Shown here one piece after another: positions 18,543 through 37,039 of a stretch of DNA of 64,000 bases. The notes beneath the pieces are model-generated. The model was given only the letters and a program-made list of their open reading frames with translations. It ran no database searches and had not been told where the DNA came from. The stretch spans positions 137,632 through 201,631 of the forward strand of contig CAYSKO010000002.1 of NCBI GenBank assembly GCA_964431835.1, read 5' to 3'. How positions within the stretch are numbered: the stretch's first letter is position 1; each line of letters opens with the position of its first letter. Source of the DNA: an uncultured Planctomycetia bacterium (GTDB taxonomy: Bacteria > Omnitrophota > Gorgyraeia > 2-02-FULL-51-18). The translations under genes and the position numbers were made by a program.

Positions 18543-21106
<2,564 letters not shown>

Positions 21107-21107
21107 A

Positions 21108-22145: not shown

Positions 22146-22390
22146 GGTTCGCTTTTCTCATCGTCGGAGTGGGCCCAGTTGCGGGCCTTATTGTAGGCTT
22201 TGCCGAGCTTGTCTTCGAGCTCGGGCGAGAGGATGCGGAGAAGCTCTTTTCCCATGATCCGGTACTGTTTGCCGACCTTCGCTGTGCGGATCAAGCCGGT
22301 CTTGATCATGCGGGTGACCGTGCTGGGGCTCACCTTAAGGAGCTGACGCACTTCTTCGGGCGTGTAGACCTCATTTTCCTTTATTTCCAT
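22142..22390 (-). CDS. Small helix-turn-helix DNA-binding protein (excisionase/MerR-like HTH); first gene after a strong promoter
   Basis: MEIKENEVYTPEEVRQLLKVSPSTVTRMIKTGLIRTAKVGKQYRI (HTH). GGAGA Shine-Dalgarno 5 nt upstream of ATG. Confidence 0.6.
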   Translation of the reverse strand: MEIKENEVYTPEEVRQLLKVSPSTVTRMIKTGLIRTAKVGKQYRIMGKELLRILSPELEDKLGKAYNKARNWAHSDDEKSEP

Positions 22391-22440
22391 GGCATCTCCT
22401 AATATCAAATAATATCATAAGATGTCACAAGTAGTCAAAT
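22391..22440 (-). promoter_or_regulatory. Canonical sigma-70-like promoter in the only AT-rich stretch of the region
   Basis: Minus-sense TTGACT-(18 nt)-TATTAT-ttgatattaGGAGAtgcc-ATG. Local GC drops to about 30%. Confidence 0.6.
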
Positions 22441-23934
22441 TTATACCCTCGGGGCCTCAGATAGGGCCACCAAGAGCCTGCCGTCGGTCTCATCGACCAC
22501 CGAATACCGGGAACGAAGGTAGGATTCGAGGCCGGGAGCGTCGTCGAGTACCTTCGCGGAGGCGATGACGTAATAATCGGCTCCCTGCGCGCGCAAAAGT
22601 TCCATCTCCACGATCAGGGATTCTGCGGCGTGCGGCCGCACGTAAAAAGCCCACCCTTTCCGGTTGCAGTAGTAGAGCTGGATAGTTCCGGTGTCGTAGC
22701 TCGCGACGACGAGGCTGTCGGGCGGCGTGAGCCGCTGAACGGCTTCGCCCGTGGCGACGATGCGGCGCTGGGGCTCGGGAATGAAATAAATGCCCCGATA
22801 GAAATACCCAGCGTTCGCCGCCGAAAGGACTCCGAGAAGCGCGAGCGACGCCCAAAGTGTTTTTCGCGGCACGCGCTCCCCCAGAAGGACCCAACCCTTC
22901 CCCATCAGGAACGCGAGCGGCGGCGCGAGCGGGATCTGATAATACGAGTGGTCGATCAGTATCCGCCAAAAGAAAATGACGTACACGACCGACGCGGCGA
23001 GCCAGGCGTAGAACACCTTGTTCTTTTCGGGCGCTTTCGAGAAAAGGCCGGCGGCGGCAAGGACAACACCGAGCGGCGTCAAGAGATGGAAGACAAAATA
23101 CTTGGCGACGGGTCGCAGGAACGACGGAGCGAAGAGCGCCCAGTAGCTCACCCCTTCCGGCCCGCGGTTCTTCACGAAATCGTACGGCCGGTAGATCAGG
23201 CGCGGATCGTCGACGCCGGCCTTCCACATGAAGTAATACCAAACGAGCGGCGCGAGCGCGGCCGCCAGATATGCCCAATGCGCGTGGTCCCGCAGGAAAG
23301 AGGCTCCCCGGTAACGCCACGCCAGATACAGCGCCGGCAGGAAGAGGTACAGCGAGTGCACTTTCGTCGCGACCGCGAACGCCATGAGGAGCGCCGAGAG
23401 CGCCAGGAACCTCGCCTTCCCGGTCTCGTAGTGCAGATACAGGAAATACAGGGTGCCCGTCGACGCGAACATCATCGCAGCTTCAGGCTGGAGCGCGCGC
23501 GAGACCGCGAGATAGAGAGGCGAAAAGGCGAGGAACACGAGCGCGGGCAACGCGTGCCGGGCATCGTACAAGCGCCGAAGGAAAAGGTAGACGAAAGCGA
23601 GCGAGCCCATCGAAAAAAGGACGGACACCAGGCGGGACGCCCACTCGCGCGCACCCCCGGCCATGAGATACATGAGCGCCATCAGGTACGAATAGACCGG
23701 CATTTCGGCGTTGTAGAGATACGGGCCGGGGCCGTTCTCGTCGATCTCAGGATAAAAGAAGTTGAAGCCGTGCTGGTAGAAGTTGCGCGCGACCGTGGCC
23801 ACGATCGCCTGGCGGGAAAGGCTGTTGTACGGCTCTACGATCGGGAGGTCAAGCTGATAAACGCGGAAGAAGAACGCGCCCGCGAAGACGAGGGCCGCGG
23901 CCTTTTCGAACGGCTTAAGCGCGGACCAGCGCAT
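22441..23934 (-). CDS. GT-C membrane glycosyltransferase, ArnT/PMT_2-like (GT39/GT83-type)
   Basis: About 11 TM helices plus a periplasmic C-terminal domain. Order and partner genes match ArnT context (next gene is ArnC-like). Confidence 0.7.
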   Translation of the reverse strand: MRWSALKPFEKAAALVFAGAFFFRVYQLDLPIVEPYNSLSRQAIVATVARNFYQHGFNFFYPEIDENGPGPYLYNAEMPVYSYLMALMYLMAGGAREWASRLVSVLFSMGSLAFVYLFLRRLYDARHALPALVFLAFSPLYLAVSRALQPEAAMMFASTGTLYFLYLHYETGKARFLALSALLMAFAVATKVHSLYLFLPALYLAWRYRGASFLRDHAHWAYLAAALAPLVWYYFMWKAGVDDPRLIYRPYDFVKNRGPEGVSYWALFAPSFLRPVAKYFVFHLLTPLGVVLAAAGLFSKAPEKNKVFYAWLAASVVYVIFFWRILIDHSYYQIPLAPPLAFLMGKGWVLLGERVPRKTLWASLALLGVLSAANAGYFYRGIYFIPEPQRRIVATGEAVQRLTPPDSLVVASYDTGTIQLYYCNRKGWAFYVRPHAAESLIVEMELLRAQGADYYVIASAKVLDDAPGLESYLRSRYSVVDETDGRLLVALSEAPRV

Positions 23935-24649
23935 TGCGCCCGATCACCCGAAGGTAGCCCAGGATCGTCCGCCCGACCTTCATTTTGCTCTTTCCCACGC
24001 GCTGGTCGCCGCGCAGGATCATCGGAACCTCTTCGATCCTCATGCCGAGGCGCGCCATGCGCACGAGAAGCTCGAGCACGCACGCGAACCCTTTTTCCTC
24101 GTAAAAGTCGCCGTACTTCTCGAGAACACGGCGGAGCGTCTGGGGCTTGTACGCGCGGTAGAACGAGCTGTACGTGCGGATGCCCTTTATGCGGAACGCG
24201 AAGTTGATGAGGAAATTCGCGACGCGGCTGAGCAGACGGCGAAACCAGGTGGTTCCGCGCACCCCGCCGCCTTCGGCATAGCAGGACGCGAGGGTGACGT
24301 CACAGCCCACCCCGATCTTCCCCAGCATCGTCGGTAGGATCGAGAGATCGCTCGTGCCGTCCGCTTCCATCGTAACGATCATGTCGGAAGGCGCGGCGGC
24401 CGCGAGCGCGGCGTTCATTCCCCGGCGGAACGCCTCGCCGACGCCACGGTTGGGCTTGTAGGAGATCGGTTCCAAAGGATAAGACGCGGCCATGCCCGCG
24501 AGGACGGACGCCGTGGCGTCCGAGCTGCCGTCATCCACGACGATGAGCCGGTACGGGAGGCCTTCTTTCTTCGCGAACGCATCGGTCCGCTCGACGAGCC
24601 CGCGCACGTTCGCCTCCTCGTTGTAGGCGGGAACGACGAAAAGGATCAT
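23915..24649 (-). CDS. Polyprenyl-phosphate sugar synthase, GT2 (DPM1/ArnC-like)
   Basis: MILFVVPAYNEEANV...LIVVDDGSSD...EADGT (DxD/ED). ATG overlaps the upstream stop (ATGA). Confidence 0.8.
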   Translation of the reverse strand: MILFVVPAYNEEANVRGLVERTDAFAKKEGLPYRLIVVDDGSSDATASVLAGMAASYPLEPISYKPNRGVGEAFRRGMNAALAAAAPSDMIVTMEADGTSDLSILPTMLGKIGVGCDVTLASCYAEGGGVRGTTWFRRLLSRVANFLINFAFRIKGIRTYSSFYRAYKPQTLRRVLEKYGDFYEEKGFACVLELLVRMARLGMRIEEVPMILRGDQRVGKSKMKVGRTILGYLRVIGRNALVRA

Positions 24650-25617
24650 GCGCGGCGGGCGGCGATCACGCGGCGAAGCGCCTCTTCGAACGGCACGAGC
24701 GGCTCGTAACCGAGAAGCGTCTTTGCCTTCGAGAGGTCCGGAACGCGCCGCGCGATTTCGCGGTAGGAGCCGAAAACCTGCTTCATCGGGACGCGTTCCA
24801 CTTTGAGTCTCCCTTTCACGCCGAGTAGGCGGTGAATCATCTTCGCGCAATCGAGGACGCTCACTTCCTCGTCGTTGCCGACGTTCACGATCTCTCCGAC
24901 CGCCGTCGGGTTCTCGAGCGCGAGCAGGGTTCCACGCACGACATCGGAAACGTGCGCCATCGAGCGCGTCTGCGAGCCGTCGCCGTGGACCGTCACGGGC
25001 TTCCCCGCTGCAATCGACTCGATGAAGATCGGCACGTGCCCGCCGCTCCAGGTCGAGCTCGATCGCTCGCTGAAGCAGCCGAAATAGCGGAGCACCACAA
25101 CCGGAACGCCGTAATCCTTGTAATAGCTGAGCGCCAGATGCTCGGAGAAGAGCTTCGAGACCGCATACGCCCAGCGTTTGGCGTCCGGCGAGCCGCTCAC
25201 GCATTCGCCGTCCTCACGGAACGGAAGGGCCGTCGAGCCGCCGTAGACGTCCGACGTCGAACCGACGACGACCTTCGTCTTGCGGGCGCGCGCGGCCTCG
25301 AGCACCGATCGTGTTCCTTCCGCGTTCACGGTAAGGGTCGGGAGCGCCGGATCCTTCTCGGCGATCTTCTTGACCGCGGCCAAGTGCACGACGGCGTCGG
25401 CGCCTTTAACGGCTCGCGTGAGCTTCGCGGTGTCCAAAATGTCGAAACGCCGGAGCTCGAAACGCGGGTTCTTCGCGTGCTGCCGCACGTTCGCGGTCTT
25501 TCCGAACGAAAGGTCGTCTACTCCGATCACGCGGTGACCCATCGACAGAAGCTCGTCCGCCAGGTGCGAGCCGATGAGCCCGCAGACGCCCGTCACGACC
25601 ACGGTTTTCTTTTTCAA
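24646..25617 (-). CDS. NAD-dependent epimerase/dehydratase (SDR; UDP-glucuronate decarboxylase/ArnA-C-terminal-like)
   Basis: (L)KKKTVVVTGVCGLIGSHLADEL...YAVSKLFSE (YxxxK). TTG start with GGAGGG Shine-Dalgarno, overlapping the upstream stop (TTGA). Confidence 0.8.
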   Translation of the reverse strand: MKKKTVVVTGVCGLIGSHLADELLSMGHRVIGVDDLSFGKTANVRQHAKNPRFELRRFDILDTAKLTRAVKGADAVVHLAAVKKIAEKDPALPTLTVNAEGTRSVLEAARARKTKVVVGSTSDVYGGSTALPFREDGECVSGSPDAKRWAYAVSKLFSEHLALSYYKDYGVPVVVLRYFGCFSERSSSTWSGGHVPIFIESIAAGKPVTVHGDGSQTRSMAHVSDVVRGTLLALENPTAVGEIVNVGNDEEVSVLDCAKMIHRLLGVKGRLKVERVPMKQVFGSYREIARRVPDLSKAKTLLGYEPLVPFEEALRRVIAARRA

Positions 25618-26708
25618 GACTTCCCTCCTCGGTCCAGGAAACGCACGATTTCCTTCAATATTTGCTCCGACGCGTCGCCGCGCCCGTAAAGCTTGCCGGT
25701 CCGCCGGCCGCGTTTCGAAAGCTTCCGGAACGCCGCGACGATCTTCTTCGCGTCGGGTTCGCAAAGCGTGTTTCCGCCCGCGGCCAGCGTTTCGGTCCAC
25801 TCGGTCTCCTCGCGCAACGTCACGCACGGCACGCCTAACAGGAACGCTTCCTTCTGAACGCCGCCCGAATCGGTGACGATCCCGGCCGCGCTCTTCTCGG
25901 CCGCGAGCATTTTGAGATAAGGGAGTGGCTCGACGATCTCGATCCGGCCCGTTTTCAATACCTCGAGACGGAGGCCGTGAATCGCGTCGAGCTTCTTCGC
26001 CGTACGCGGGTGAAGCGGCATAAAAACTTTCCTGTCGAGCGAGGCGAGCGCGCGGAAGATGCGTTTCAGGCGCGCCGGGTCGTCGGTGTTCACGTTCCGG
26101 TGGATCGTCGCCAGGTAATACGGCTCGGACGCGCGCCGCGCGGCGATTGAGTGCTCGTAGTGGCGGAGGATGTCGGCCATCACGTCGCCGACGCGGTGCA
26201 CGCCCTTCCGGACGCCTTCCCGCTCAAGATGGCCGACGGCCGCTTCGGTTGGGCAAAAAAGGAGCGACGAGAGGCCGTCCGTCGCGATTCGGTTTACCTC
26301 TTCGGGCATCGCACGGTTTCCGCTTCGCAGGCCCGCCTCCACGTGCGCGACAGGTACGTTCAGCTTCGCGGCCGCAAGAGCACCGGCCAGCGTGGAATTG
26401 GTGTCTCCGAAGACGATAACCACGTCCGGCTTCTCTTTTATGAATACGTCTTCGAGGCGCTCGAGCATGAGCGCGGTCTGCGCGCCGTGCGAGCCCGAAC
26501 CAACCTTCAGGTTATAGCGCGGTTCGGGGATATTGAGCTCGTCGAAGAACACTTTCGACATCTTGTAGTCGTAGTGCTGGCCGGTATGGGCCCAAACGAG
26601 AGAAAGGCGCTTCGAAAGCGTCGAACGCGACCAGGCCGCGTGCAGCGCGGCGGCCTTCACGAACTGCGGGCGCGCGCCGACGACGGCGACCGCCTTGAAT
26701 TTCTTCAC
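25614..26708 (-). CDS. UDP-N-acetylglucosamine 2-epimerase (WecB family), paralog 2
   Basis: (V)KKFKAVAVVGARPQFVKAAAL...HTGQHYDYKMS...DTNSTLAGALAAAKL...HVEAGLRS. GTG overlaps the upstream stop (GTGA). Confidence 0.8.
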   Translation of the reverse strand: MKKFKAVAVVGARPQFVKAAALHAAWSRSTLSKRLSLVWAHTGQHYDYKMSKVFFDELNIPEPRYNLKVGSGSHGAQTALMLERLEDVFIKEKPDVVIVFGDTNSTLAGALAAAKLNVPVAHVEAGLRSGNRAMPEEVNRIATDGLSSLLFCPTEAAVGHLEREGVRKGVHRVGDVMADILRHYEHSIAARRASEPYYLATIHRNVNTDDPARLKRIFRALASLDRKVFMPLHPRTAKKLDAIHGLRLEVLKTGRIEIVEPLPYLKMLAAEKSAAGIVTDSGGVQKEAFLLGVPCVTLREETEWTETLAAGGNTLCEPDAKKIVAAFRKLSKRGRRTGKLYGRGDASEQILKEIVRFLDRGGKS

Positions 26709-27715
26709 AGGCGGACGGTGCGGCCGTCTGCCTTCAGGGATTTCGAGGCGGCCTGCAGGATCCGGAGGACGGCCAGTCCGTTCTCGCCGTCCGAATGCGG
26801 CTTCATGTTTTTCTCGACGCACTCCAGGAAATGCAGGCATTCGGCGCGCAGCGGCTCGACGTTCTCGACGTACGGCGCGTGCACTTCGCCCACGCGTAGG
26901 ACCATTGAGCTCGCCATCTCGTTCGCGCCGTTCAAGTCCACGCCCTTGTCGAAGATCTTCAGCTTGTCGGTGTGCTCCATGTCGTCGAAGACGACCATCT
27001 TGCGGCTTCCGACGACGGTCATGCGGCGCACCTTGTGCGGATCGAGCCAGCTTAAGTGGATGTGGGCGGCCTTGTCGTCCTTGAACTTGAAATCCATGAA
27101 GATGACGTCCTCGATCCCCCGGGCTTTCTGGATGTAGCTGAACCCGTGCGCGCTGACCGAGACGGGCGGTTTGGGGAAAAGTTCGAGGATCACGGAGATG
27201 TCGTGCGGCGCGAGACTCCAGAGCGCGTTCTCGTCCTTGCGCACCTGGCCGAGATTGAGGCGCTGGGTGTACATGTAGTACGTCTCGCCGAGTTCGCCCG
27301 AATGGAGGATTTCCTTCAGCTTCCGGACGGCCGGATGATAAAGGAGGAGGTGTCCAACCATGAGGCGTAGGCGCTTTTTCTTCGCGAGGCGGCACAGGTC
27401 CTCGGCGTGGCGAACGTCGAGCGCGATGGGCTTCTCGACGAACACGTGCTTCCCCGCTTCGAGTGCCTTCTTGGCGAACTCGTAATGGGACGGCGACGGG
27501 ACGGCGACGGCGACCGCGTCGATAGAAGAATCGTTCAGGATTTCGTCGTAGGAAGACGTGACGCGCACGTCGGGATAGAGCGAGGAGAATGAGGAAAGGA
27601 GTTCGGGACGGCGGTCGCACAGGCCTTTGAGCGCGCCCAACTCGCGAAAATGCCGGACTAGGTTTTTACCCCAATATCCGGCGCCGCAGACCGCGACCGA
27701 GGCTCTTTTTGACAT
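26705..27715 (-). CDS. Gfo/Idh/MocA family oxidoreductase
   Basis: MSKRASVAVCGAGYWGKNLVRHF...VEKPIA. ATG lies 6 nt downstream of a TATAGT -10 box. Confidence 0.8.
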   Translation of the reverse strand: MSKRASVAVCGAGYWGKNLVRHFRELGALKGLCDRRPELLSSFSSLYPDVRVTSSYDEILNDSSIDAVAVAVPSPSHYEFAKKALEAGKHVFVEKPIALDVRHAEDLCRLAKKKRLRLMVGHLLLYHPAVRKLKEILHSGELGETYYMYTQRLNLGQVRKDENALWSLAPHDISVILELFPKPPVSVSAHGFSYIQKARGIEDVIFMDFKFKDDKAAHIHLSWLDPHKVRRMTVVGSRKMVVFDDMEHTDKLKIFDKGVDLNGANEMASSMVLRVGEVHAPYVENVEPLRAECLHFLECVEKNMKPHSDGENGLAVLRILQAASKSLKADGRTVRL

Positions 27716-27757
27716 TTTAGGACTATAGCATCCGCGTCCGGAGCGGTCAATAAACCT
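27716..27757 (-). promoter_or_regulatory. Extended -10 promoter (TGCTATAGT) 6 nt upstream of the ATG; leaderless-type start of a sub-operon
   Basis: Minus-sense GGATGCTATAGTCCTAAA-ATG. Same GGATGCTATAGT motif recurs at about 30897-30910. Confidence 0.5.
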
Positions 27758-28693
27758 CTATCCCCCGGAGGCGTCCCGGCGCCAAACTTCGGCGCATTCG
27801 CCCATCGTGCGGATCTCGCGGCCGCTCGAAACGATAACCTCGAGAGCGCGCTCGAAATGCTCGCGCTTCTTGGCGAGCGGAATGCCGGCCCGCTCGAGAT
27901 GAATCTTGCGGGAGGGGTCGAGGTCGGCGGCGTCGGCCAGGTCCAGTGGATGAACGAGGTAGTAGAACGCGTCGCAGTCCGCGAGGCAGGACCGCAGGAG
28001 CTTCTCGAACCTTGGCCAGCCGAGAACGAACGAAAGCGTGTGCCAGCAGGCGACGCGGTAGCGGTTCGTCGGGAGCGGCAGGACGAGAATACCCGGCGAG
28101 GCGCCGGACGCGCGCGGGCGGAGGCCGCCGTCGCTCACAAACGGATGCCGCGGGCCCCAAAGTTGGGCGCCCAGGTCCTTCCGGCGGTGGATCCGCGCGA
28201 ATTTGTCGCTGCCCAAATGGTTGTAGAGATTTTTCGCGACGGCCACCGCCATGAGCCACGACGGGGCAAGCGAGGTGTCGTAGCCGTATCCGGCGTCGAT
28301 CAACCTACGCAGAAGCGCCGGCGACGTGGCCCAGCCCGGCGCGATGAAACCGCGCGGCGGCGTTCCGGCCGTTTCGGCGATGAGATCGTGCGCGGCATGC
28401 ACTTCCTTCGCGATCGCGGCGTCCGGAAGGCTCCCGAGATTGAGCGGGTGGGACCACGAATGGTTTCCGATCTCGTGTCCGTCCCCCGCCCACTCGCGCA
28501 CACGCGCGCGGTTCCGGGCCGATTCGAGGTCCCGGCCGATCAGGTACAGGCTGTACTTGAATTTGAAGCGTGCCGCGGCGTCCAAAAAACGGTCCGCGAT
28601 GCGGAAAAAGGACGGATCTTCGTAGCCTGCGGGAAATCCGTAGGCTTCGTTCAGCGAATCGAAGTTCACGTTGATCGCGGCGAGTTTCTTCAC
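27758..28693 (-). CDS. Polysaccharide deacetylase family (CE4/NodB homology; ArnD-like deformylase candidate)
   Basis: NVNFD...IGNHSWSHP (NodB motifs). GTG start 1 nt after the upstream stop. Confidence 0.75.
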   Translation of the reverse strand: MKKLAAINVNFDSLNEAYGFPAGYEDPSFFRIADRFLDAAARFKFKYSLYLIGRDLESARNRARVREWAGDGHEIGNHSWSHPLNLGSLPDAAIAKEVHAAHDLIAETAGTPPRGFIAPGWATSPALLRRLIDAGYGYDTSLAPSWLMAVAVAKNLYNHLGSDKFARIHRRKDLGAQLWGPRHPFVSDGGLRPRASGASPGILVLPLPTNRYRVACWHTLSFVLGWPRFEKLLRSCLADCDAFYYLVHPLDLADAADLDPSRKIHLERAGIPLAKKREHFERALEVIVSSGREIRTMGECAEVWRRDASGG

Positions 28694-28694
28694 G

Positions 28695-29510
28695 TCAGAA
28701 ATGATTTCTCGAAAGGTCTTTCCACTCGGCGACGCGGTAGCCCGCCCTCTCGAACGCGACCACGTCCCCGCGCGACGGAAGCCCGTAATAGCGGGACCCG
28801 GCGGCCGCAGGCGCGGCGCCGGCCGGGGCATCCGCTTTCGCCAGCGTCTCGCGGACCGCGCGGCGCATCGTCTCGGGAAAATTTCGGTAAACGTCCGTGT
28901 AGAACGCGAGCATGGACGAATGCGGGCCGGATTCGCGGCGCTCCTCGAAAAGCACGCGGCCGGTATCGACTCCTTCGTCCACGAGGTGGCAGGTTACGGC
29001 CGGAGGCAACCCGTTCAGGCGCGACCACAGAAACGGAAAGAGCCCGCGGCACTGCGGCAGGACGCCGGCATGCTTGTTCACGACGCCCGCGCGGGCGGCT
29101 TTCAGCACCGGCCCTTTCAAGACGTCGTTGAGGAAAATCAGAACGACGTCGACGCGGTTCTTCATGATCCACTCGGCGACCGCCGGATCGTTCGGATCCG
29201 CCGCGTGCGCGATCGGCACGCCTGCTTTCTCGAACGCGTTCCAGCCTCCGGGCATCGCAAAAAGACCCTTCACCGCGCTCTTCATCGAATAAAGCGAAAA
29301 AAGAAGCGTGTTCTTTACGCCGAACGTGCGGAAATACCAGCCGAGCGCCTCGCTCCCGCGCATGCGGGCGAGCTTCGACGGAAAAATACGGACACCGACG
29401 ACGTCGTACTCCGCCCGCAGCGCCGAAAGTGCGCGATACCAGGCAGGCAGCGCCCAGGTCCGGTCATCGGCCGTCAGGATAGCGATCCGCGGGCGGAGGC
29501 TTTCGGTCAC
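28695..29510 (-). CDS. Stand-alone formyltransferase-domain protein (Formyl_trans_N; ArnA-N-terminal/sugar N-formyltransferase-like)
   Basis: VVNKHAGVLPQCRGLFPFLWS (N-x-H ... SLLP-like) and HLVDEGVDTGRVLF (H...D). GTG overlaps the upstream stop (GTGA). Confidence 0.65.
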   Translation of the reverse strand: MTESLRPRIAILTADDRTWALPAWYRALSALRAEYDVVGVRIFPSKLARMRGSEALGWYFRTFGVKNTLLFSLYSMKSAVKGLFAMPGGWNAFEKAGVPIAHAADPNDPAVAEWIMKNRVDVVLIFLNDVLKGPVLKAARAGVVNKHAGVLPQCRGLFPFLWSRLNGLPPAVTCHLVDEGVDTGRVLFEERRESGPHSSMLAFYTDVYRNFPETMRRAVRETLAKADAPAGAAPAAAGSRYYGLPSRGDVVAFERAGYRVAEWKDLSRNHF

Positions 29511-30871
29511 GCGGCTCTCGCATCGCTACGTTTCAAGAGACCGAGCAGGATCTTCGCCGCAAAATAGAGTGACGCGACCGAATAAAGAAGACGCGAACCG
29601 GCCACGGCCTTCCCCGGCACGTGCCACGCGACGTCCTGCGGGAACGGATAAAAAAGGCCCGGCCCGGCCGAGGCGGTGTCGAGATTGAACGCGAAGATGA
29701 GGACAAAATAAATCCAGGAAAGAGCGCGCGGCCACGGCTCCCCCTTCATCATGAGCCAGACGAAAAGCGGCAGCGTCCACATGAAATAATGGACGTGCGT
29801 GGTCGACGTCGCATGAAGCGTAAGGAGGACCGCCAGCGACAGGCGCAGGAACACGTCCGCACGGCGCCCGGGCGGAACCGGATTGCGGAAGACGAACGGC
29901 GCGATACACGCGAGCCAAGTGCCTACGAGCACGATCTTCGAGGCTTTCGCCACGATCTCGGCGTTCGTACGGAAAATGCTCTGCGTCGCCATCTGTAGGA
30001 CGACCGGCGAGTAATAGGCATGAAGGACGTACCCGCGCGAGTGAACCGCCAGCGGCAGGAGGATGAGCACAAGCGGGGCGGCCGCGCAGGCGGCGAGCTT
30101 CGCGCGCTCCTTGAAACCCGCGCCAAGGACGAGAACGGCCGGCGCCAAAAGAAGGAGTGCGAACGAATCGAGCAGGCACGTGAGGCCGAGCAGAGCGCAC
30201 GCGCGGCCGTTCTTCCCTTTTTCCGCGCAAAAGATCACGGCCCAAAGGCAAAGCGCGGTCCAAAGCCGGTACTGCCCGAAAACGTAGCACCCGTACAGCA
30301 CGATCGGGCTGAAGAGCCAGATCGTGGCCGCCTTGCGCGCGTCTTTTCCGAAAAGGCGCCACAGGATCGCCACGATCCCGGCTTCGGCCAAAAGGTACGA
30401 TGCCTTCATCCAAAAAAGCATCCGGAAAATCGCCGTCGAGGCGCCGAGCACGCAATCATCGGCCTCATTGAATGGCAACTTCTCGGAGACGCCGTAGACG
30501 TCGGAGGTCGAAGAGATGACGACCTTCGACTTCCGGGTTTTGGCAAAGCGAAGTACCGATTCTGCGCCCATCGCATTCACCATGAGCGTCGGAACTGCCC
30601 GCTGGCTTTCTCCGATTTTCTTGAGAGAAGCTTGATGCAGGACGACGTCGGCGTGCGGAACTTTACGCAGAAGCATTCCGGTGTCGAGCACGTCGAGCTG
30701 GATGAATCGGAAGTTGGGATTTTTGAGGTGGTTGCGGACGTTGTCGAGCTTGCCATAGGAAAGGTCGTCGACGCCGATGACTCGCTCGCCCCGCAAGAGG
30801 AGCTCGTCGAGGAGATGGGAACCGATGCATCCGCATACACCGGTGATGAGAATGGTTCGTTTTTTCACCAA
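29507..30871 (-). CDS. Chimeric ORF: truncated SDR Rossmann N-terminus (about 140 aa, no YxxxK) fused in frame to a multi-TM membrane domain
   Basis: N-terminus (M)VKKRTILITGVCGCIGSHLLDELL...VVISSTSDVYG is a paralog of 24646..25617. The membrane part (WLFSPIVLYGCYVFGQYRLW...GYVLHAYYSPVV) is a paralog of 33358..34650. TTG/GTG start with AAGGGGG Shine-Dalgarno. Confidence 0.55.
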   Translation of the reverse strand: MVKKRTILITGVCGCIGSHLLDELLLRGERVIGVDDLSYGKLDNVRNHLKNPNFRFIQLDVLDTGMLLRKVPHADVVLHQASLKKIGESQRAVPTLMVNAMGAESVLRFAKTRKSKVVISSTSDVYGVSEKLPFNEADDCVLGASTAIFRMLFWMKASYLLAEAGIVAILWRLFGKDARKAATIWLFSPIVLYGCYVFGQYRLWTALCLWAVIFCAEKGKNGRACALLGLTCLLDSFALLLLAPAVLVLGAGFKERAKLAACAAAPLVLILLPLAVHSRGYVLHAYYSPVVLQMATQSIFRTNAEIVAKASKIVLVGTWLACIAPFVFRNPVPPGRRADVFLRLSLAVLLTLHATSTTHVHYFMWTLPLFVWLMMKGEPWPRALSWIYFVLIFAFNLDTASAGPGLFYPFPQDVAWHVPGKAVAGSRLLYSVASLYFAAKILLGLLKRSDARAA

Positions 30872-30940
30872 AATACGCGACCCCCTTATGACGAAGCGAG
30901 TACTATAGCATCCTCGTTACGAGCAGGCAAATACTAAAGG
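30872..30940. promoter_or_regulatory. Divergent intergenic region with near-palindromic TACTATAGCA: reads TGCTATAGT (extended -10) on the minus strand and TATAGC on the plus strand. Putative bidirectional promoter.
   Basis: Seen on both strands at about 30897-30910. Minus-side leader carries an AAGGGGG Shine-Dalgarno. Confidence 0.45.
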
Positions 30941-32278
30941 ATGACCCGTGTCGCCTCTTGTATTAGAATACCGCCCGTGGCTCCCTCTTCTGTCCGAAAG
31001 TCGCTCCTAATCGCCGCCGCCGCGGCCGCCGCGGCGTCGCTTCCTTTTTTGAGCGGCGCTCTTCCGGAAAAAGCGGCTTTAACGGCGCTCACCGTGGCTG
31101 TGTTGGCAGGCGGGTTCGCAGGAAGAGGGCACGGAAAGGCCGCTTCGCTGGTTCTTCTTGCCGCCTCCCTCTGCGTCGCTCTCGCTGCCTGCGATCTCCT
31201 GGCGCGACTTCTTCCCCCGAGCATCTTCTATTATCGCCCCGAAGACGCCTTCCTCAGTCGGCGCCCGGAAATGCCTGCCGTGTCGCGCTTTTCGAAGAAC
31301 GCCCGGTTCCGGGGCCGCGTGGTCGGGGACCTGGCGGCGCTTGCGGGAGGTCATGCCGAACCGCGCGACGTCTGTTTTGTGACGGACGAGGCGGGTTTTC
31401 GCAATCTTCCTGGTACGCGCGCCCGAGCGATCGACGTCCTGCTCGTCGGAGATTCGTTCGGTATCGGGAACGGCACTTCGCAGGAAAAAACATGGGCGAG
31501 CGTTCTCGAAAACCGCTACGGGCGTACCGTTTACAATCTCTCGACTGGCGGATCACCGTGGACCGAGCTTATGAACGTGAAAACCGAAATCGACTCGCTC
31601 CGCACGGCTCCCGACGCCGTCCTGGTCTGGGCGCTTTTCACGGGCAATGACCTGGACGGCGAATACCGCGGAACCGAACCGGTCTTCACGGCCCCGCTCG
31701 AGCGTTTCGGCGTCCGATGGACGACGTTCCGCGAGCGCTCGCCGGTGCGGCTCCTCCTGCGGCGGGTGCGGTACGCGCTTCGGCTGAGCGCCGACACGCG
31801 CGGTCCTTCACCGGTTCACGCGCGCGTTCTTCCCGACGGTCGAACCGTCCTTTTCCTGAACGACTACGCGAAAGCCGAAGAGAAGCCTTACTCGGAATGC
31901 ATACGGAGCAAAAATTTAGGAGCGCTCCACGCGACATTCGCCGAAATGAAAAGGCTTTGTGAGGAGAAGGGCGTTCGGGTTGCCGTTGTGGTGGTTCCGA
32001 CGAAGGAAGGCGTTTATGATTGGATCCTGAGCGGAAAGCGGAGCGCCACGGCCTCGAGCGGTTTTTCCCTTCTCGTCCGCGATCTTTGCGGCGAAAACGG
32101 CTTCGCGTTTTTGGATCTCAAAGACCCGATGCGACGGCTCGCGCTCTCGAAACCGGAGACGTCGCTCTGGTGGCTCGACGACACTCATTGGAACGACGCC
32201 GGGCACGCCGAGGCGGCACGCCTGGTCGAAGCTAAGCTAGGTTCGCCCCGCTTGCGAAGCGACGAGCGATCGTTCTAA
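30941..32278 (+). CDS. SGNH/GDSL hydrolase-fold protein of the AlgX/AlgJ type (candidate polysaccharide O-acetyl/acyl transferase or esterase), N-terminal TM anchors
   Basis: LLVGDSFGIGNG (GDS block) and DDTHWND (DxHW motif of AlgX/AlgJ-like proteins). One of only two plus-strand genes. Confidence 0.7.
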   Translation: MTRVASCIRIPPVAPSSVRKSLLIAAAAAAAASLPFLSGALPEKAALTALTVAVLAGGFAGRGHGKAASLVLLAASLCVALAACDLLARLLPPSIFYYRPEDAFLSRRPEMPAVSRFSKNARFRGRVVGDLAALAGGHAEPRDVCFVTDEAGFRNLPGTRARAIDVLLVGDSFGIGNGTSQEKTWASVLENRYGRTVYNLSTGGSPWTELMNVKTEIDSLRTAPDAVLVWALFTGNDLDGEYRGTEPVFTAPLERFGVRWTTFRERSPVRLLLRRVRYALRLSADTRGPSPVHARVLPDGRTVLFLNDYAKAEEKPYSECIRSKNLGALHATFAEMKRLCEEKGVRVAVVVVPTKEGVYDWILSGKRSATASSGFSLLVRDLCGENGFAFLDLKDPMRRLALSKPETSLWWLDDTHWNDAGHAEAARLVEAKLGSPRLRSDERSF

Positions 32279-33361
32279 GTTCACGGCGATGCGCTCGGCC
32301 GCTTTTCCGTCCCATCCCCGCGGCACGCGAGTCTTCTTCCATTTCCCGGCGATCGCTTTCCGCGCCGCCGCGACCACGACCTTCACGTCCGAACCCACGA
32401 GCACGTTCGTCCCCTCTCTCACCGTGACGGGCCGCTCGGTGTTTTCCCGCATCGTCAGGCACGGAACACCAAGTTTCGTCGTCTCTTCCTGAATACCGCC
32501 CGAGTCGGTGAGCACGAAAGCACTTTCCTTTACGAGCTTGAGAAAATCCGTGTAGCCGAGCGGCTCGATCATCCGAAAACCCGGTAAGGCCGCGAAGCGT
32601 TTTCCGAGACCGTGCGATTCGATCATCTTCCGCGCGCGCGGATGGACGGGATAGAGAACCGGCGTCAGACGCGCGATGGACTCGAAGATCGAAAGGATCT
32701 TAAGGAGAGCCGCCTTCGTGTCCACGTTCGAGGGCCGGTGCATCGTCACCACGGCATACCCCTTCGGCCGGAGCCCAAGGCTCGCGACCACGCGCGATCT
32801 CTCGATGGCGGGAAGTCCCGCGACTAGGCTGTCGATCATCACGTTACCGTCGAAAAAAACCCGTCTCGCCGGAATCCCCTCGCGTCTCAGGTTCCGGATG
32901 GCACTCTCCTCGGTCACATAGAGAAAATCCGACAGGCGGTCCACCGCGATCCGGTTGATTTCTTCGGGCATCGCCCTGTCGAAGCTGCGAAGTCCAGCCT
33001 CGACGTGCGCGACCGGCACCTGCATCTTGGCAGCGGCAAGGGCGCACGCGAGTGTCGAATTCACGTCTCCCACCACGACGATCGCATCCGGACGCTCCTT
33101 AAGAAGCGTCCGCTCGAAAAGCTCGAGCACCTTCGCGGTTTGAGCGCCATGCGTTCCGGAACCGACCTCGAGATGCACGTCCGGCTTCGGGATGCCAAGG
33201 TCCCGGAAGAACACCCCCGACATCTTGAAGTCGTAGTGCTGTCCGGTGTGAACGAAGACGACCTGGAAGCGCTTTCGGAGCGCGCGGATGAGCGGCGCGA
33301 CCTTAATAAAGTTTGGCCGCGCCCCTGCCGCCACCACGACCTTCAAGCGCCGCCGTTTCAC
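32237..33361 (-). CDS. UDP-N-acetylglucosamine 2-epimerase (WecB family), paralog 3
   Basis: (V)KRRRLKVVVAAGARPNFIKVAPL...HTGQHYDFKMS...DVNSTLACALAAAKM...HVEAGLRS. GTG overlaps the upstream stop (GTGA). The 3' end overlaps the convergent plus-strand gene by 42 nt. Confidence 0.8.
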   Translation of the reverse strand: MKRRRLKVVVAAGARPNFIKVAPLIRALRKRFQVVFVHTGQHYDFKMSGVFFRDLGIPKPDVHLEVGSGTHGAQTAKVLELFERTLLKERPDAIVVVGDVNSTLACALAAAKMQVPVAHVEAGLRSFDRAMPEEINRIAVDRLSDFLYVTEESAIRNLRREGIPARRVFFDGNVMIDSLVAGLPAIERSRVVASLGLRPKGYAVVTMHRPSNVDTKAALLKILSIFESIARLTPVLYPVHPRARKMIESHGLGKRFAALPGFRMIEPLGYTDFLKLVKESAFVLTDSGGIQEETTKLGVPCLTMRENTERPVTVREGTNVLVGSDVKVVVAAARKAIAGKWKKTRVPRGWDGKAAERIAVNLERSLVASQAGRT

Positions 33362-34650
33362 GTCACGCTCCCCAGCCGCGGCCGGATGCGAGCGCGGTAC
33401 AGCGAGAACGCGAAGTAGGCGCACAGGACTGAGAACCCGAGGCGCGCGAGAGCGACAAACTTGCCCCAGGGAAGGAACCTCTCCATGACCTCATGAAGGC
33501 TCGGCAACGAGGAAAAGAACACGGGGTCGAGCGGAACGAGAAGCCCGAGGTTCATCGCGCGCGAATCGAGATTGAAAAAGAAAAGAAAACCAACCATTGC
33601 CGCGGAAAGCGGGTACACCCACGGCTCGCCCTCGTCGAAGCGCGCGAGAATCCAGAAAGGCAGTGCCCAAAGGACGTAGTGAACCATTGTCACGGACGTC
33701 GCGTAGAGCGCAAAAAGGACGGCGAGCGCCGTGCACGCGAAGAGACGCCCTCTCTCGATGTCCGACAAGGTGCCGGGAGCGCGACAGACTCGCACAAAAA
33801 GGAACAAGTAAAAAAGAAGGAACGCCGTTTTTAAAGCGATAGGAAGGATCCCGGGGGCGTGCACGAACATCCCCTGCGTCGCCGCGCCGACCACGACCGG
33901 CGAAAAATAGGCATGAAGAACGAGGCCTCCGGAGGAGATCGCCAGCGGCGCCACGACCAGAAGAGGAAACACCGCGAAGCAAAGCGCAAGCTCCGTCCGC
34001 TCCCTCCATCCTCGCCCCAGAATCATGAGGGCAGGCGGCAGAAGAAGCATCGGATAATTCTCGAGGCACGCCGCTGCGCCCGCCAGGACGAACGCCGCGT
34101 GCTTGCGTCTTGAACGCAGCGCCCAGAAGAAGACCCACCAGCACGCAGCCGAAAGGACCCGGTACTGGCCGAACGCGTAGGTGGAGAAAATCAGGATCGG
34201 GTCGAAGAGCCACCCGCGGAGCGCTTTTTTCCGTCGGTCGGGGGCAAAAGCGTGCCACAAAGCGGCGCACGCCAGCACATCCGCGAAGAGGTACGGAAGC
34301 TTCATGAGGAAAACGCGCCGGAGAAGCGCCGGCTCGGGGGAGCCCAGATACACCGCGATGGAGCGTCCGCCCTCGCGCATAAGCGCGTCCGTGCGGACCA
34401 TGAACTCGGCGAAGCCCGGATCGAGCGGTATAAGAAGTATCTGAAATAAACCAATGAGGAAATACGCCAGCGGCGGATAGTACGTGAAGCCGTGACGCAG
34501 ATACGTGTCCCCCAGATGCCCGTAAACGTCCCACACCCCGTGGAGACTGAGAAACGACGGGAAATACTGGATGAATAAGATATCCGCGTGGAGGGTCGCT
34601 GGCATCAGCGCCAGGCGCAGGGCGAGCGCCGCCGCGAGAAGTTTTTTCAC
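33358..34650 (-). CDS. Polytopic membrane protein of unknown function (candidate GT-C-like glycosyltransferase or polymerase). Paralog of the membrane half of 29507..30871.
   Basis: 10 or more TM helices; conserved FGQYR...HAYFSPVV blocks shared with the chimeric ORF. Confidence 0.6.
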   Translation of the reverse strand: MKKLLAAALALRLALMPATLHADILFIQYFPSFLSLHGVWDVYGHLGDTYLRHGFTYYPPLAYFLIGLFQILLIPLDPGFAEFMVRTDALMREGGRSIAVYLGSPEPALLRRVFLMKLPYLFADVLACAALWHAFAPDRRKKALRGWLFDPILIFSTYAFGQYRVLSAACWWVFFWALRSRRKHAAFVLAGAAACLENYPMLLLPPALMILGRGWRERTELALCFAVFPLLVVAPLAISSGGLVLHAYFSPVVVGAATQGMFVHAPGILPIALKTAFLLFYLFLFVRVCRAPGTLSDIERGRLFACTALAVLFALYATSVTMVHYVLWALPFWILARFDEGEPWVYPLSAAMVGFLFFFNLDSRAMNLGLLVPLDPVFFSSLPSLHEVMERFLPWGKFVALARLGFSVLCAYFAFSLYRARIRPRLGSVT

Positions 34651-34657
34651 CCGCTCG

Positions 34658-34816
34658 TCAGAAGAGAGTGTAAATGAGCGGGGCGACGGCCGAAGAATGT
34701 GTGACGATGATGAGAAGGCCGATCACGACGAGCATCGTCAGAATCGGCAGAAGGACGAGGTTCCGTGTCGACGTCATGAACCCGAAGAGCGCTTTCAGAT
34801 CTTTAAGGGAGCGCAT
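34658..34816 (-). CDS. Small membrane protein (52 aa), SxtK/DUF5989-like; commonly accompanies carbamoyltransferases
   Basis: MRSLKDLKALFGFMTSTRNLVLLPILTMLVVIGLLIIV...; ATG preceded by GGAAAGGA. Confidence 0.55.
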   Translation of the reverse strand: MRSLKDLKALFGFMTSTRNLVLLPILTMLVVIGLLIIVTHSSAVAPLIYTLF

Positions 34817-34829
34817 GGGTATCCTTTCT

Positions 34830-35213
34830 TCAGTACGGGTTTTCGCAGGCCTTGTCGTCTTTTTCCGTCGGCTTCGGGCGATGGATCCAGTAGCTGTCGC
34901 GGACCGGCTCCAAACGACGTTTGAGCGCGTCGCCCTGCAGCGCGCGCACAAGGAGACCGTAAGGCGCGAATATAACATAGAAGAAAACGATCATGAACAG
35001 TTTTGTGAGAAGCTCGCCGAGCTTCGTGAGGAGCCCCGAGTAGAGGCGGTAGAACGCGTCGGCCGCCGATGCGCTCGCCAGACGCAGGACAACGAGAAAC
35101 GCGCAGAAACCTCCGGCGGCCCATCCGAACGCCGCGTGCCCGCGGTAAAACGTGAAACACGAAACGCCGGCCAGGATGAATGGAACGACCCGGTAAAAAC
35201 GTTTGGAATCCAT
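34830..35213 (-). CDS. Small membrane protein (127 aa), SxtJ-like; commonly accompanies carbamoyltransferases
   Basis: MDSKRFYRVVPFILAGVSCFTFYRG... two TM segments. GGGAG Shine-Dalgarno; lies directly downstream of the carbamoyltransferase stop. Found by hand translation; the ORF track masked it inside a long spurious frame. Confidence 0.55.
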   Translation of the reverse strand: MDSKRFYRVVPFILAGVSCFTFYRGHAAFGWAAGGFCAFLVVLRLASASAADAFYRLYSGLLTKLGELLTKLFMIVFFYVIFAPYGLLVRALQGDALKRRLEPVRDSYWIHRPKPTEKDDKACENPY

Positions 35214-35224
35214 CGGCGCTCCCA

Positions 35225-37039
35225 TCAGTCGAGACCCGCCAGCTCGGCACCCTGATATTCGTTCACCGATCCCGCCTTCTGGCCGGATTTTTCGAGGAAG
35301 AAGGAACCGAGCACCAGCACGTCCATTTTCGTCTTCAGGAAGCAGCGGTACGCCTCGGACGGCGCGCAGACGATCGGCTCTCCGCGGACGTTGAACGAGG
35401 TGTTGATGAGGACGGGGCAGCCGGTGAGCCGGTCGAACGCCTCGAGAAGTTTCCGGAAGCGCGGATTCTCCGGACCCACCGTCTGCACGCGCGCCGAGCC
35501 GTCGACGTGCGTGACGGCCGGGATGGTGGAGCGGACGTCGTGCAGGCGGTCGAGCCCACGCGGGCGCTTTCGGTCGCCTACACGCTGCTTGGAAGCGACG
35601 TCCGCGACGATCAGCATGTACGGGCTCTCTCCTTCGAGGTCGAAATATTCTTTCGCGCGCTCGCGGAGGACCGCCGGGGCGAAAGGACGGAAGCTCTCGC
35701 GGAACTTGATCTTCAAGTTCATGATCGACTGCATCTTCGACGAACGCGCGTCCCCGAGAATGCTGCGGGCGCCGAGCGCGCGCGGCCCGAACTCCATCCG
35801 GCCCTGGAACCAGCCGACGACCTTCTCCGAAGCGATCGCCTTCGCGGTTTCCTCTGCGATCTCCGCCTCGGACAGCTTCCGGTAGGCCGCGCCCTCGGAA
35901 CGAAGGAACGCCTCGATCTCCCCGTCTGTGAACTCCGGCCCCCACAGCGAGGCGCCCTGGATGCCGTGTACCGGATCCGGGTTCGGGACGCGGGGCTGCT
36001 TGAAATAGTGGTGGTTCACGTACATCGCCGCGCCGAGCGCACCACCTGCGTCGCTGGAAGCGGGCTGCACCCAGATCTCGTCGAATATCTTCTCTTTTTG
36101 GATCTTTCCGTTCGATACGCAGTTGAGAGCCACTCCGCCGGCTAGGCATAGACGCCGCTCGCCCGTGGTCTTTCGCACGTGCCGCGCCAGGCGAAGCATC
36201 GCCGTATCGAGGACCTCCTGGATGGAGCGCGCGACGTCCAGATGGCGCTCCTGGAACGGGCTTTCCGCCGGCCGCGCGGGGCCCCCGAAGAGATCCTCGA
36301 ACTTGCGGTTGATGGAATTGAGCCCGCCCGCGTAGCCGAAATAATCCATGTTGAGCCGGTAAGAGCCGTCGTCTTTCAGATCGATCAGGTTCTCGAGAAT
36401 GAGGTCCATGTACTTGGGCTCGCCGTAAGGCGCAAGACCCATCAGCTTGTACTCGCCTGAATTGATCCGGAAGCCGAGGTAATGCGTGAACGCCGAGTAA
36501 AGAAGCCCAAGGGAATGAGGAAAATGGATCTCGGCCTGGATATCGAGGCGGCGGTCGTTTCCGACGCCGTAGCTCGTCGTCGCCCACTCGCCCACGCCGT
36601 CGACGGTCAGGAACGCGGCACGATCATAGGGCGACGCGTAGAACGCCGACGCGGCGTGCGACTGGTGGTGCTCCGGAAATAGAATCGGCGCTTTGGTCTT
36701 CAGCTCCTCCTCGATCATGGAGTGGATGTAGAGCCGGTGACGGATCCAAAGCGGGATCGCCTGCAGGTAGGACGGGAGGCAGCCCGGGGCGGTCAAGAGA
36801 TGGGTTTTCAGGATGCGGTCAAACTTGAGAAGCGGTTTGTCATAGAATGCGACCGCGTCGAGGGCGTCCGCCGAGACGCCGCCCTGCTTCAAGCAAAACT
36901 CGACCGCGCGGGCCGGGAACGAGTCGTCGTGCTTTTTGCGCGTGAAACGCTCTTCCTGCGCGGCCGCGACGATGCGCCCGTCCTCGAGAAGACACGCGGC
37001 GCTGTCGTGATAGAACGCGGAAATTCCGAGGATCTTCAT
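35225..37039 (-). CDS. Carbamoyltransferase of the NodU/CmcH/SxtI family (O-carbamoyltransferase)
   Basis: MKILGISAFYHDSAACLLEDGRIVAAAQEERFTRKKHD... plus C-terminal carbamoyltransferase domain. ATG overlaps the upstream stop (ATGA). Confidence 0.9.
   Translation of the reverse strand: MKILGISAFYHDSAACLLEDGRIVAAAQEERFTRKKHDDSFPARAVEFCLKQGGVSADALDAVAFYDKPLLKFDRILKTHLLTAPGCLPSYLQAIPLWIRHRLYIHSMIEEELKTKAPILFPEHHQSHAASAFYASPYDRAAFLTVDGVGEWATTSYGVGNDRRLDIQAEIHFPHSLGLLYSAFTHYLGFRINSGEYKLMGLAPYGEPKYMDLILENLIDLKDDGSYRLNMDYFGYAGGLNSINRKFEDLFGGPARPAESPFQERHLDVARSIQEVLDTAMLRLARHVRKTTGERRLCLAGGVALNCVSNGKIQKEKIFDEIWVQPASSDAGGALGAAMYVNHHYFKQPRVPNPDPVHGIQGASLWGPEFTDGEIEAFLRSEGAAYRKLSEAEIAEETAKAIASEKVVGWFQGRMEFGPRALGARSILGDARSSKMQSIMNLKIKFRESFRPFAPAVLRERAKEYFDLEGESPYMLIVADVASKQRVGDRKRPRGLDRLHDVRSTIPAVTHVDGSARVQTVGPENPRFRKLLEAFDRLTGCPVLINTSFNVRGEPIVCAPSEAYRCFLKTKMDVLVLGSFFLEKSGQKAGSVNEYQGAELAGLD

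Follow-up and report, generated by a model that had tools for sequence, protein, structure and literature searches.

An in-frame fusion of a truncated SDR gene to a truncated GT-C-type membrane glycosyltransferase gene, probably a rearrangement relic, in an Arn-like gene cluster of an uncultured bacterium

Introduction

Membrane glycosyltransferases of the GT-C fold share a conserved N-terminal module, which consists of transmembrane helices 1–7 (TM1–TM7) with two juxtamembrane helices in the first loop (PMC12041525, PMC12653191), and in the solved structures the catalytic Asp is found at the tip of the first juxtamembrane helix, in the TM1–TM2 loop. The catalytic Asp of ALG6, ArnT and PglB corresponds to residue D58 of PimE, whose D58A/N variants are inactive (PMC12041525). 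The same catalytic position is held by D39 in Gpi14 and D51 in PIG-M, and its mutation in PIG-M abolishes activity (PMC12653191). The TM2–TM3 loop of GT-C enzymes is cytoplasmic (PMC12041525), and the enzymes use donors linked to lipids, not to nucleotides, on the opposite membrane side (PMC6056205, PMC12041525). In the O1 locus of Citrobacter youngae, GT-C and GT2 enzymes are encoded together with remnants of orf13, an epimerase gene of the short-chain dehydrogenase/reductase (SDR) type (PMC11127046). Here we describe an open reading frame (ORF) at 29507..30871 on the minus strand of a 64,000-nt stretch of DNA (the window; assembly GCA_964431835.1, contig CAYSKO010000002.1, positions 137,632 to 201,631) from an uncultured Planctomycetia bacterium placed in the Omnitrophota by GTDB. 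This ORF is an in-frame chimera, in which the N-terminal part of an SDR is followed by part of a membrane glycosyltransferase assigned to the GT-C fold.

The chimera resembles each of these described systems in part. Like the extended SDRs acting on nucleotide sugars (PF01370; UDP-glucuronate decarboxylase, ArnA C-terminal domain or GalE type), its residues 1–147 have the GxxGxxG motif, the acidic residue after strand β2, the DxxD and HxAS motifs and the STS(DVYG) strand, and they are 59–66% identical to full-length relatives. Unlike these enzymes, the fragment ends five residues before the Tyr of the YxxxK motif, without strands β6–β7 and the substrate-binding domain. The intact member of its membrane family is predicted to fold like PIG-M/Gpi14, GT87/PimE and ALG6, with a profile match to GPI mannosyltransferase 1, whereas the chimera is without TM1, the first extracytoplasmic loop (EL1) and TM2, which are part of the conserved seven-helix module holding the catalytic acidic residue. 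As with orf13 of Citrobacter youngae O1, a truncated SDR gene has been left in a glycan-modification locus (PMC11127046), but in the window the remnant runs in frame into another truncated gene, and the two form one long ORF that heads an operon.

Structure of the chimeric ORF

The chimera has 454 residues if the TTG at 30871 is used and 453 residues from the GTG at 30868 (MKKRTILITG...), which is the choice of the gene callers and is homologous to the start of related SDRs. A preliminary description of this DNA, made from the letters and their ORFs, had recognized a chimeric ORF with an SDR N-terminus and a membrane domain in frame, and both homologies are strong. BLASTP aligns the chimera with the intact SDR of the window (24646..25617) at E = 2e-56; the identity is 48% over 190 columns in this alignment, which over-extends past the junction, and 59% over residues 1–146 in a MAFFT alignment. 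Residues 145–438 match residues 106–414 of the membrane protein at 33358..34650 (37% identity, E = 2e-48, BLASTP), and the FGQYR and HAY(Y/F)SPVV blocks, which had been pointed out as common to the two proteins, are both in this alignment. As for Pfam, the chimera matches only profile positions 1–131 of the 240 of Epimerase (PF01370; 70.5 bits, cutoff 20.9), and a weak GT87 signal is present on residues 154–338.

The junction between the two halves is clean. In a residue-level comparison with the closest relatives, A147 ('...CVLGASTA') is the last residue of SDR homology, after which all relatives go on with 'KRWxYA(I/V)SK', and homology to the membrane family begins at I148 ('IFRMLFWMK' compared with 'RIFQYVFFMK' in the family member P0132). 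This places the join at about nt 30430–30433, between codons 147 and 148 and short of the expected catalytic Tyr. The preliminary description was therefore right that the SDR similarity stops before YxxxK and that the ORF goes on in frame, but its position for the junction (about 30440–30480) has to be moved slightly in the 3' direction. The DNA homology between the SDR half and the intact SDR gene stops at 30443. Moreover, there is a break in base composition at the junction: the SDR fragment has a GC content of 56.2%, within the lowest 2.4% of 432-nt segments (the same size), while the membrane half has 62%. A dip in GC to 0.50–0.58 is seen across 30350..30950, which starts at the fusion junction and extends through the upstream intergenic region.

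The SDR half contains the NAD-binding hallmarks, namely G11-V-C-G14-C-I-G17 and the acidic residue D35 after β2. From the catalytic triad the Ser/Thr strand (STS 121–123) is present in the chimera and YxxxK is not; also missing are strands β6–β7 and the whole C-terminal domain for binding of the substrate (nucleotide sugar). The matches to solved SDRs (UDP-glucuronate decarboxylases, GalE, WbgU and ArnA) all end at residues 129–145, and in the case of GalE residues 3–139 are aligned. Residue 139 of GalE is located before the catalytic Tyr and Lys of that enzyme. No stray SDR C-terminal piece or GT-C N-terminal piece was found in any frame of the 64 kb using tblastn. A structure prediction of the fusion, which had been proposed earlier, gives both parts but not a confident join: the AlphaFold model (pLDDT, the predicted local distance difference test score, of 80) has a partial Rossmann domain with β1–β5 and then a confident helical bundle, while residues 123–151, which span the junction, have pLDDT below 50.

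GT-C fold of the membrane half

The fold of the membrane half was analysed on the intact paralog at 33358..34650, to which the chimera is tied by the alignment with paralog residues 106–414. The paralog was modelled with AlphaFold2 (AF2) using 72 family sequences (pLDDT 96.2, predicted template modelling score 0.94), and the top matches of this model in the Protein Data Bank (PDB), as searched with Foldseek, are GT-C proteins only: PIG-U (7w72_U), which is the first, GPI mannosyltransferase I, STT3, ALG6, ALG9, PimE, ArnT, ALG3 and ALG12. Furthermore, the family profile matches GPI mannosyltransferase 1 with E = 3e-11 over profile positions ~120–356, which is the part retained by the chimera, and weak matches to the GT87, PIG-M and PIG-U Pfam models occur among family members. 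By its modelled structure, the membrane family is thus of the GT-C fold, as the preliminary description had guessed. No Pfam or NCBIfam model of its own was found for the family. An exhaustive profile search gave 598 representatives at the level of 50%-identity clusters, nearly all of them 410–460 residues long and matching from end to end.

Among 72 members, 13 columns are conserved at 90% or more: H21, D23, Y58, P60, K117, Y120, L121, W147, P151, G161, Q162, P331 and L370. The first four, which form the HxD and YPP motifs, fall in the ~105 residues missing from the chimera. In the paralog model TM1 covers residues 2–18, the loop helices 23–52 and TM2 60–76, and all of these have no equivalent in the chimera. 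D23 begins the first loop helix, and from this position in the fold it would be the counterpart of the catalytic Asp/base; the N-terminal HMMER alignment of the family HxD with Gpi14 is insignificant (score −1.3) and off D39. A tblastn search of the window revealed no replacement for H21-x-D23.

In some family entries (P0154, P0214, P0265, P0186, P0181 and others) the N-terminal part is missing up to about profile position 106, or positions 2–105 are all that is covered; these entries are probably fragments at contig ends, and a module boundary at the TM2–TM3 loop is conceivable. They were rejected as a mark of such a boundary, since the starts of the short entries are scattered (75, 85, 98, 106, 106, 109, 142, 205 and 320) and several are without proper termini, like contig-end fragments.

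Relatives of the chimera

The architecture of the chimera is known only from its own cluster. A search of 5.8 billion proteins listed 120 of 154 hits at E <= 1e-3, and none of the listed hits outside this cluster has the same architecture; the others are SDRs of ~325 residues and one membrane protein of 425 residues, P0002. In addition, no SDR domain is present on the best 150 of the 598 family representatives. The membrane half and P0002 are each other's nearest relatives (44% identity); P0002 is full length and unfused, has the native HGD...YYGP N-terminus, and its gene overlaps by 4 nt with the next one, a formyltransferase gene whose product is 42% identical to the formyltransferase after the chimera. 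The search for unfused orthologs that the preliminary description had recommended has therefore yielded one, and P0002, by its sequence and its place upstream of an orthologous formyltransferase, is the unfused positional ortholog of the membrane half. In front of P0002 (positions 1..24 of its contig L005) an ORF ends with '...VSYDVDL*' and an ATGA stop/start overlap; the contig includes just seven of its codons, which do not suffice for an identification. At other orthologs of the formyltransferase the pair of formyltransferase and deacetylase genes is kept, but the genes upstream are different.

Other searches gave little more: a word-index search with the membrane half alone returned the chimera itself only, a metagenome scan with family patterns gave no confirmed relatives, and a scan of GTDB genomes gave relatives at just 23–29% identity. 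Three candidates were rejected. P0260, which matches from its residue 133 and was considered as a second N-terminal fusion, turned out to be full length, a divergent member that has a motif of its own ('LMPFFCHGDL'); and the family includes neither a 457-residue protein without Pfam match in locus L002, two genes downstream of the SDR P0006, nor the partial gene that precedes the formyltransferase in L025.

A natural fusion of another kind was observed in P0155 (673 residues), which combines a complete GT2 domain (residues 5–172) with a complete GT-C domain of the family (residues 258–671; profile positions 5–419). Like the chimera, it has a cytoplasmic sugar-pathway domain in front of a membrane domain of this family, which fits an N-in topology; unlike the chimera, which keeps neither parent intact, it has both parent domains complete. 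P0155 would unite the steps that make and use the lipid-linked sugar in one polypeptide.

Relic or working protein

We consider it probable that the chimera is a catalytically dead relic of a rearrangement, which persists as the leader ORF of an operon. It should be inactive as an SDR because YxxxK and the substrate-binding half are gone, and inactive as a GT-C enzyme because the first outside loop with the near-invariant HxD is gone. An inactivated remnant had been one of the readings offered in the preliminary description, and it is the best supported of them, with both catalytic centres missing, the architecture found nowhere else in the searches above, and P0002 unfused at full length. The product, if made, would consist of a cytoplasmic, five-stranded partial Rossmann domain, a poorly structured linker of ~29 residues and 10 of the 12 helices of the GT-C bundle. 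As the break falls in the TM2–TM3 loop, which is cytoplasmic in GT-C enzymes, exactly two helices would be lost, the remaining topology would be preserved and the SDR fragment would stay in the cytoplasm; this preserved topology may account for the product being tolerated. The loss of the parental activities should be tolerable too, because the same cluster has an intact paralog of each parent and a further GT-C gene (PMT_2). Moreover, the SDR-derived 5' end would supply a promoter and a ribosome-binding site, and the GTGA overlap at the 3' end may couple translation into the formyltransferase and deacetylase genes. Selection may maintain no more than an open frame through which ribosomes reach the downstream start.

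Several points weigh against a dead relic. The inactivity is inferred from the missing motifs, and the conserved residues outside them are well kept. Out of 47 SDR columns conserved at 70% or more in 100+ relatives, the chimera keeps 41, including every NAD-binding motif, D60 and the STS strand, and the intact SDR of the window keeps 43. In the C-terminal ~320 residues, which carry the family motifs MKxxYL, WxxxP, FGQ, HYxxW and NLD, 20 of the 26 columns conserved at 70% or more are kept, and intact members keep 18–25. The Tajima relative-rate test of the membrane half against P0002 is non-significant, as are the relative-rate tests of both halves against their nearest intact relatives, and the periodicity GC3 > GC1 > GC2 (GC content at the third, first and second codon positions) is intact in both halves. 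There is thus no detectable decay in either half, which fits a young relic and, equally, purifying selection on a working protein. Since a single clonal lineage is on record (1 mismatch in 21,362 nt), these two cases are not separable. Variants for an estimate of dN/dS were sought among strains and set aside, since the 'variants' in the protein clusters are start-codon conventions alone: the three members of the 90% cluster differ solely in how the start codon is translated. In addition, the unfused state is known from one contig of 1.9 kb, that of P0002. Finally, there is a precedent in PIG-U, which has a GT-C fold without the catalytic DxD motif, has a non-catalytic role and is thought to bind the lipid-linked glycan (PMC6056205, PMC12653191).

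On these grounds the chimera could be a functional, non-catalytic membrane protein, in which the truncated GT-C bundle binds a polyprenyl-phosphate-linked sugar or glycan, as proposed for PIG-U with GPI; its role would then be that of a scaffold or a presenting subunit to the neighbouring enzymes, and the half-Rossmann domain would bind NAD(H) or provide docking on the cytoplasmic side. Besides the conserved residues of both halves, the retained NAD-binding motifs and the lack of rate acceleration, the break in the TM2–TM3 loop with its preserved topology and the promoter-like site of its own at the head of an operon would suit such a protein. However, no second example exists among the listed hits of either large protein search, and the positional ortholog is unfused. 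PIG-U, which is the top structural match of the intact paralog and shares with the chimera a GT-C fold without catalytic DxD, keeps all its helices, TM1, EL1 and TM2 included, and has no cytoplasmic Rossmann fragment, while the chimera has lost two helices and a loop from the conserved seven-helix core. The cut after β5 also removes the YxxxK helix of the Rossmann domain, and residues 123–151 are disordered in the model. We therefore regard both the sugar-binding role and the scaffold role as unlikely.

Slightly less credence still is given to a working neo-protein, in which a half-Rossmann domain that binds NAD(H) in the cytoplasm would be attached to a PIG-U-like, non-catalytic bundle without TM1-EL1-TM2, and this bundle would still bind an aminosugar linked to polyprenyl phosphate; the protein could act as a scaffold or a redox-responsive regulator of the downstream Arn-like pathway. 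The preliminary description had imagined a membrane protein with a nucleotide-sugar module that channels substrate to a GT-C-like enzyme. While its guess of a GT-C-like enzyme has proved good, channelling is not supported, as the SDR piece has neither the substrate-binding half nor YxxxK, the GT-C piece is without TM1, the loop with its conserved HxD and TM2, and GT-C enzymes take their sugars from lipids, not nucleotides, across the membrane (PMC6056205, PMC12041525).

It is highly improbable that the chimera is an active split enzyme, to which another gene product or the intact paralog contributes the TM1-loop-TM2 part in trans so that a working GT-C results. The few library entries of the family that cover only profile positions 2–105 or begin near 106 could hint at a natural module boundary, but the starts of the short entries are scattered as described above, no separate N-terminal piece is encoded anywhere in the 64 kb, and no comparable split GT-C was found in the literature searched.

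Origin of the two halves

The preliminary description had also offered a recent duplication of the SDR gene 24646..25617 and the membrane gene 33358..34650, with a deletion then fusing the copies. The paralogs of both halves are indeed within 5 kb and in the same orientation. However, in nucleotide sequence the SDR half and the resident SDR gene share only 64.7% identity, and the likeness of the membrane half to its paralog in DNA is limited to short patches of 72–74%. Closer relatives exist elsewhere: the SDR half is nearer to P0004 (66%) and P0003 (64%) than to the resident SDR (59%), and the membrane half to P0002 (44%) than to the resident paralog (36% in amino acids). The GC content of the SDR fragment, 0.562, also differs from that of the N-terminal half of the resident SDR gene, which is 64.6%. 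The comparisons indicate that the halves are old paralogs of the genes in the window and not recent copies, and a recent duplication has very little probability. The earlier statement that the SDR half is a close paralog of 24646..25617 is accordingly correct as to paralogy and not as to closeness.

The chimera probably arose from two other parent genes, by deletion or illegitimate recombination. In one such event, codon ~147 of an extended-SDR gene would have been joined in frame to codon ~106 of a GT-C gene, which replaced the first ~105 codons of a native GT-C gene by 147 codons from the 5' end of an SDR gene of lower GC content, possibly a foreign one. The locus of the nearest SDR relatives (P0006) has 48–52% GC and the contig of P0002 60–66%. 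A breakpoint common to the chimera and the intact SDR, as by reciprocal exchange, was suggested by the asymmetry in identity between N- and C-terminal halves and was rejected, because the C-terminal halves of this subfamily are generally more conserved.

It is very unlikely that an assembler joined two separate genes, as would be a misassembly at the junction of which the preliminary description had warned: although the sources are metagenome assemblies and all records belong to one clonal lineage with no diverged strain known, the identical chimera recurs on two JGI contigs (55 and 86 kb), on an NCBI/Logan contig (204 kb) and in a GEM bin record, the JGI locus L001 agrees with the window over 21,362 nt with the 1 mismatch, the paralogs are just 65–74% identical in DNA and exact k-mers of the junction region that recur elsewhere in the window are 15 nt at most, so that no repeat could mislead an assembler, and the join keeps the frame and falls where the membrane topology allows it.

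Genomic context

The coordinates of the chimera, its parts and the surrounding features are collected in Table 1.

Table 1. Positions of the chimeric ORF, its two fragments, the expression signals and the neighbouring genes in the 64,000-nt window
Feature	Position	Strand	Evidence and remarks
Chimeric ORF	29507..30871	-	Stop TGA 29507-29509; identical protein in JGI, NCBI/Logan and GEM records
SDR fragment, residues 1–147	30431..30871	-	Rossmann strands β1–β5, GxxGxxG (G11/G14/G17), D35, D60, STS (121–123); without YxxxK and substrate-binding domain
Predicted GT-C fragment, residues 148–454 and stop	29507..30430	-	Equals residues ~106–430 of the intact paralog (TM3 to C-terminus); TM1, first extracytoplasmic loop (HxD) and TM2 (YPP) gone
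Junction, codons 146–148 (ACG GCG ATT = T-A-I)	30428..30436	-	In frame, without filler
Sigma-70-like promoter, TTGCCT-17-TATAGT with TG extension (extended -10)	30902..30930	-	Motif scan: 4 sites against 0.4 expected in shuffles
Shine-Dalgarno-like run AAGGGGG	30881-30887	-	9–12 nt before the start
GTGA overlap of chimera stop and formyltransferase GTG start	29507..29510	-	Arrangement typical of translational coupling
Formyltransferase (Formyl_trans_N), next gene of the operon	28695..29510	-	Pfam
Polysaccharide deacetylase	27758..28693	-	Co-directional block 22441..28693
GFO/IDH/MocA oxidoreductase	26705..27715	-	Co-directional block
Epimerase_2	25614..26708	-	Co-directional block
Intact extended SDR (323 residues), paralog of the N-terminal half	24646..25617	-	BLASTP, Pfam; YAVSK present
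GT2	23915..24649	-	Co-directional block
PMT_2 GT-C	22441..23934	-	Co-directional block
Second Epimerase_2 paralog	32237..33361	-	Arn-like cluster
Intact GT-C paralog of the membrane half (430 residues)	33358..34650	-	BLASTP, model, Foldseek

The chimera heads a co-directional block and is separated by a 69-nt spacer from a divergent GDSL/ALGX gene. The latter (30941..32278) is the sole gene of the block on the plus strand and may mark the boundary of a rearrangement; at its 3' end it shares 42 nt with the convergent Epimerase_2 gene. The block as a whole (~19500..37039, minus strand) encodes the formyltransferase, the polysaccharide deacetylase, two proteins of the UDP-GlcNAc 2-epimerase family, SDRs, an ArnC-like GT2, three GT-C proteins (PMT_2, the intact paralog and the chimera), a DegT aminotransferase, NeuB and a carbamoyltransferase. 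All six Arn-type domain types are present in it (formyltransferase, SDR decarboxylase, aminotransferase, GT2 polyprenyl-phosphate transferase, deformylase and GT-C), with NCBIfam matches to ArnA and ArnC far below the curated cutoff, and by its domain content the block resembles an Arn-type system for modification with lipid-linked aminosugars. The ArnC-like GT2 (E = 7.6e-16, under the NCBIfam cutoff) is the sole and contextual support for a donor linked to polyprenyl phosphate.

Directly upstream of the intact GT-C paralog there is a tight trio of genes (34658..37039, minus strand) for the carbamoyltransferase (604 residues), a 131-residue protein without Pfam match and a 52-residue DUF5989 protein; carbamoyltransferases recur in the related loci L002–L004. 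The whole 64 kb contains no tRNA gene and no Rfam family at the gathering threshold. Many long spurious ORFs are found on the opposite strand (for example 22630..24207, plus strand, 525 residues), as expected at 63% GC.

Implications

If the chimera is a relic, it would be an ordinary by-product of the constant reshuffling in surface-glycan gene clusters, and a tidy example of how a polytopic protein can be truncated with its parity preserved and with the frame left open at the head of an operon. If, as we think unlikely, it is a working protein, it would be a bacterial analogue of PIG-U with a cofactor-binding module, which would be of interest to glycobiologists. For annotation the chimera is a warning, since pipelines give it the Epimerase and GDP-mannose-dehydratase Pfam labels, though from its missing motifs it would be neither that enzyme nor an active GT-C enzyme. 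A useful by-product of the analysis is the sizeable membrane family itself, which has a predicted GT-C fold, is without a Pfam or NCBIfam model, is recognizable by the motifs HxD, YPP, MKxPYLxxD, WxxNP and FGQ, and merits annotation.

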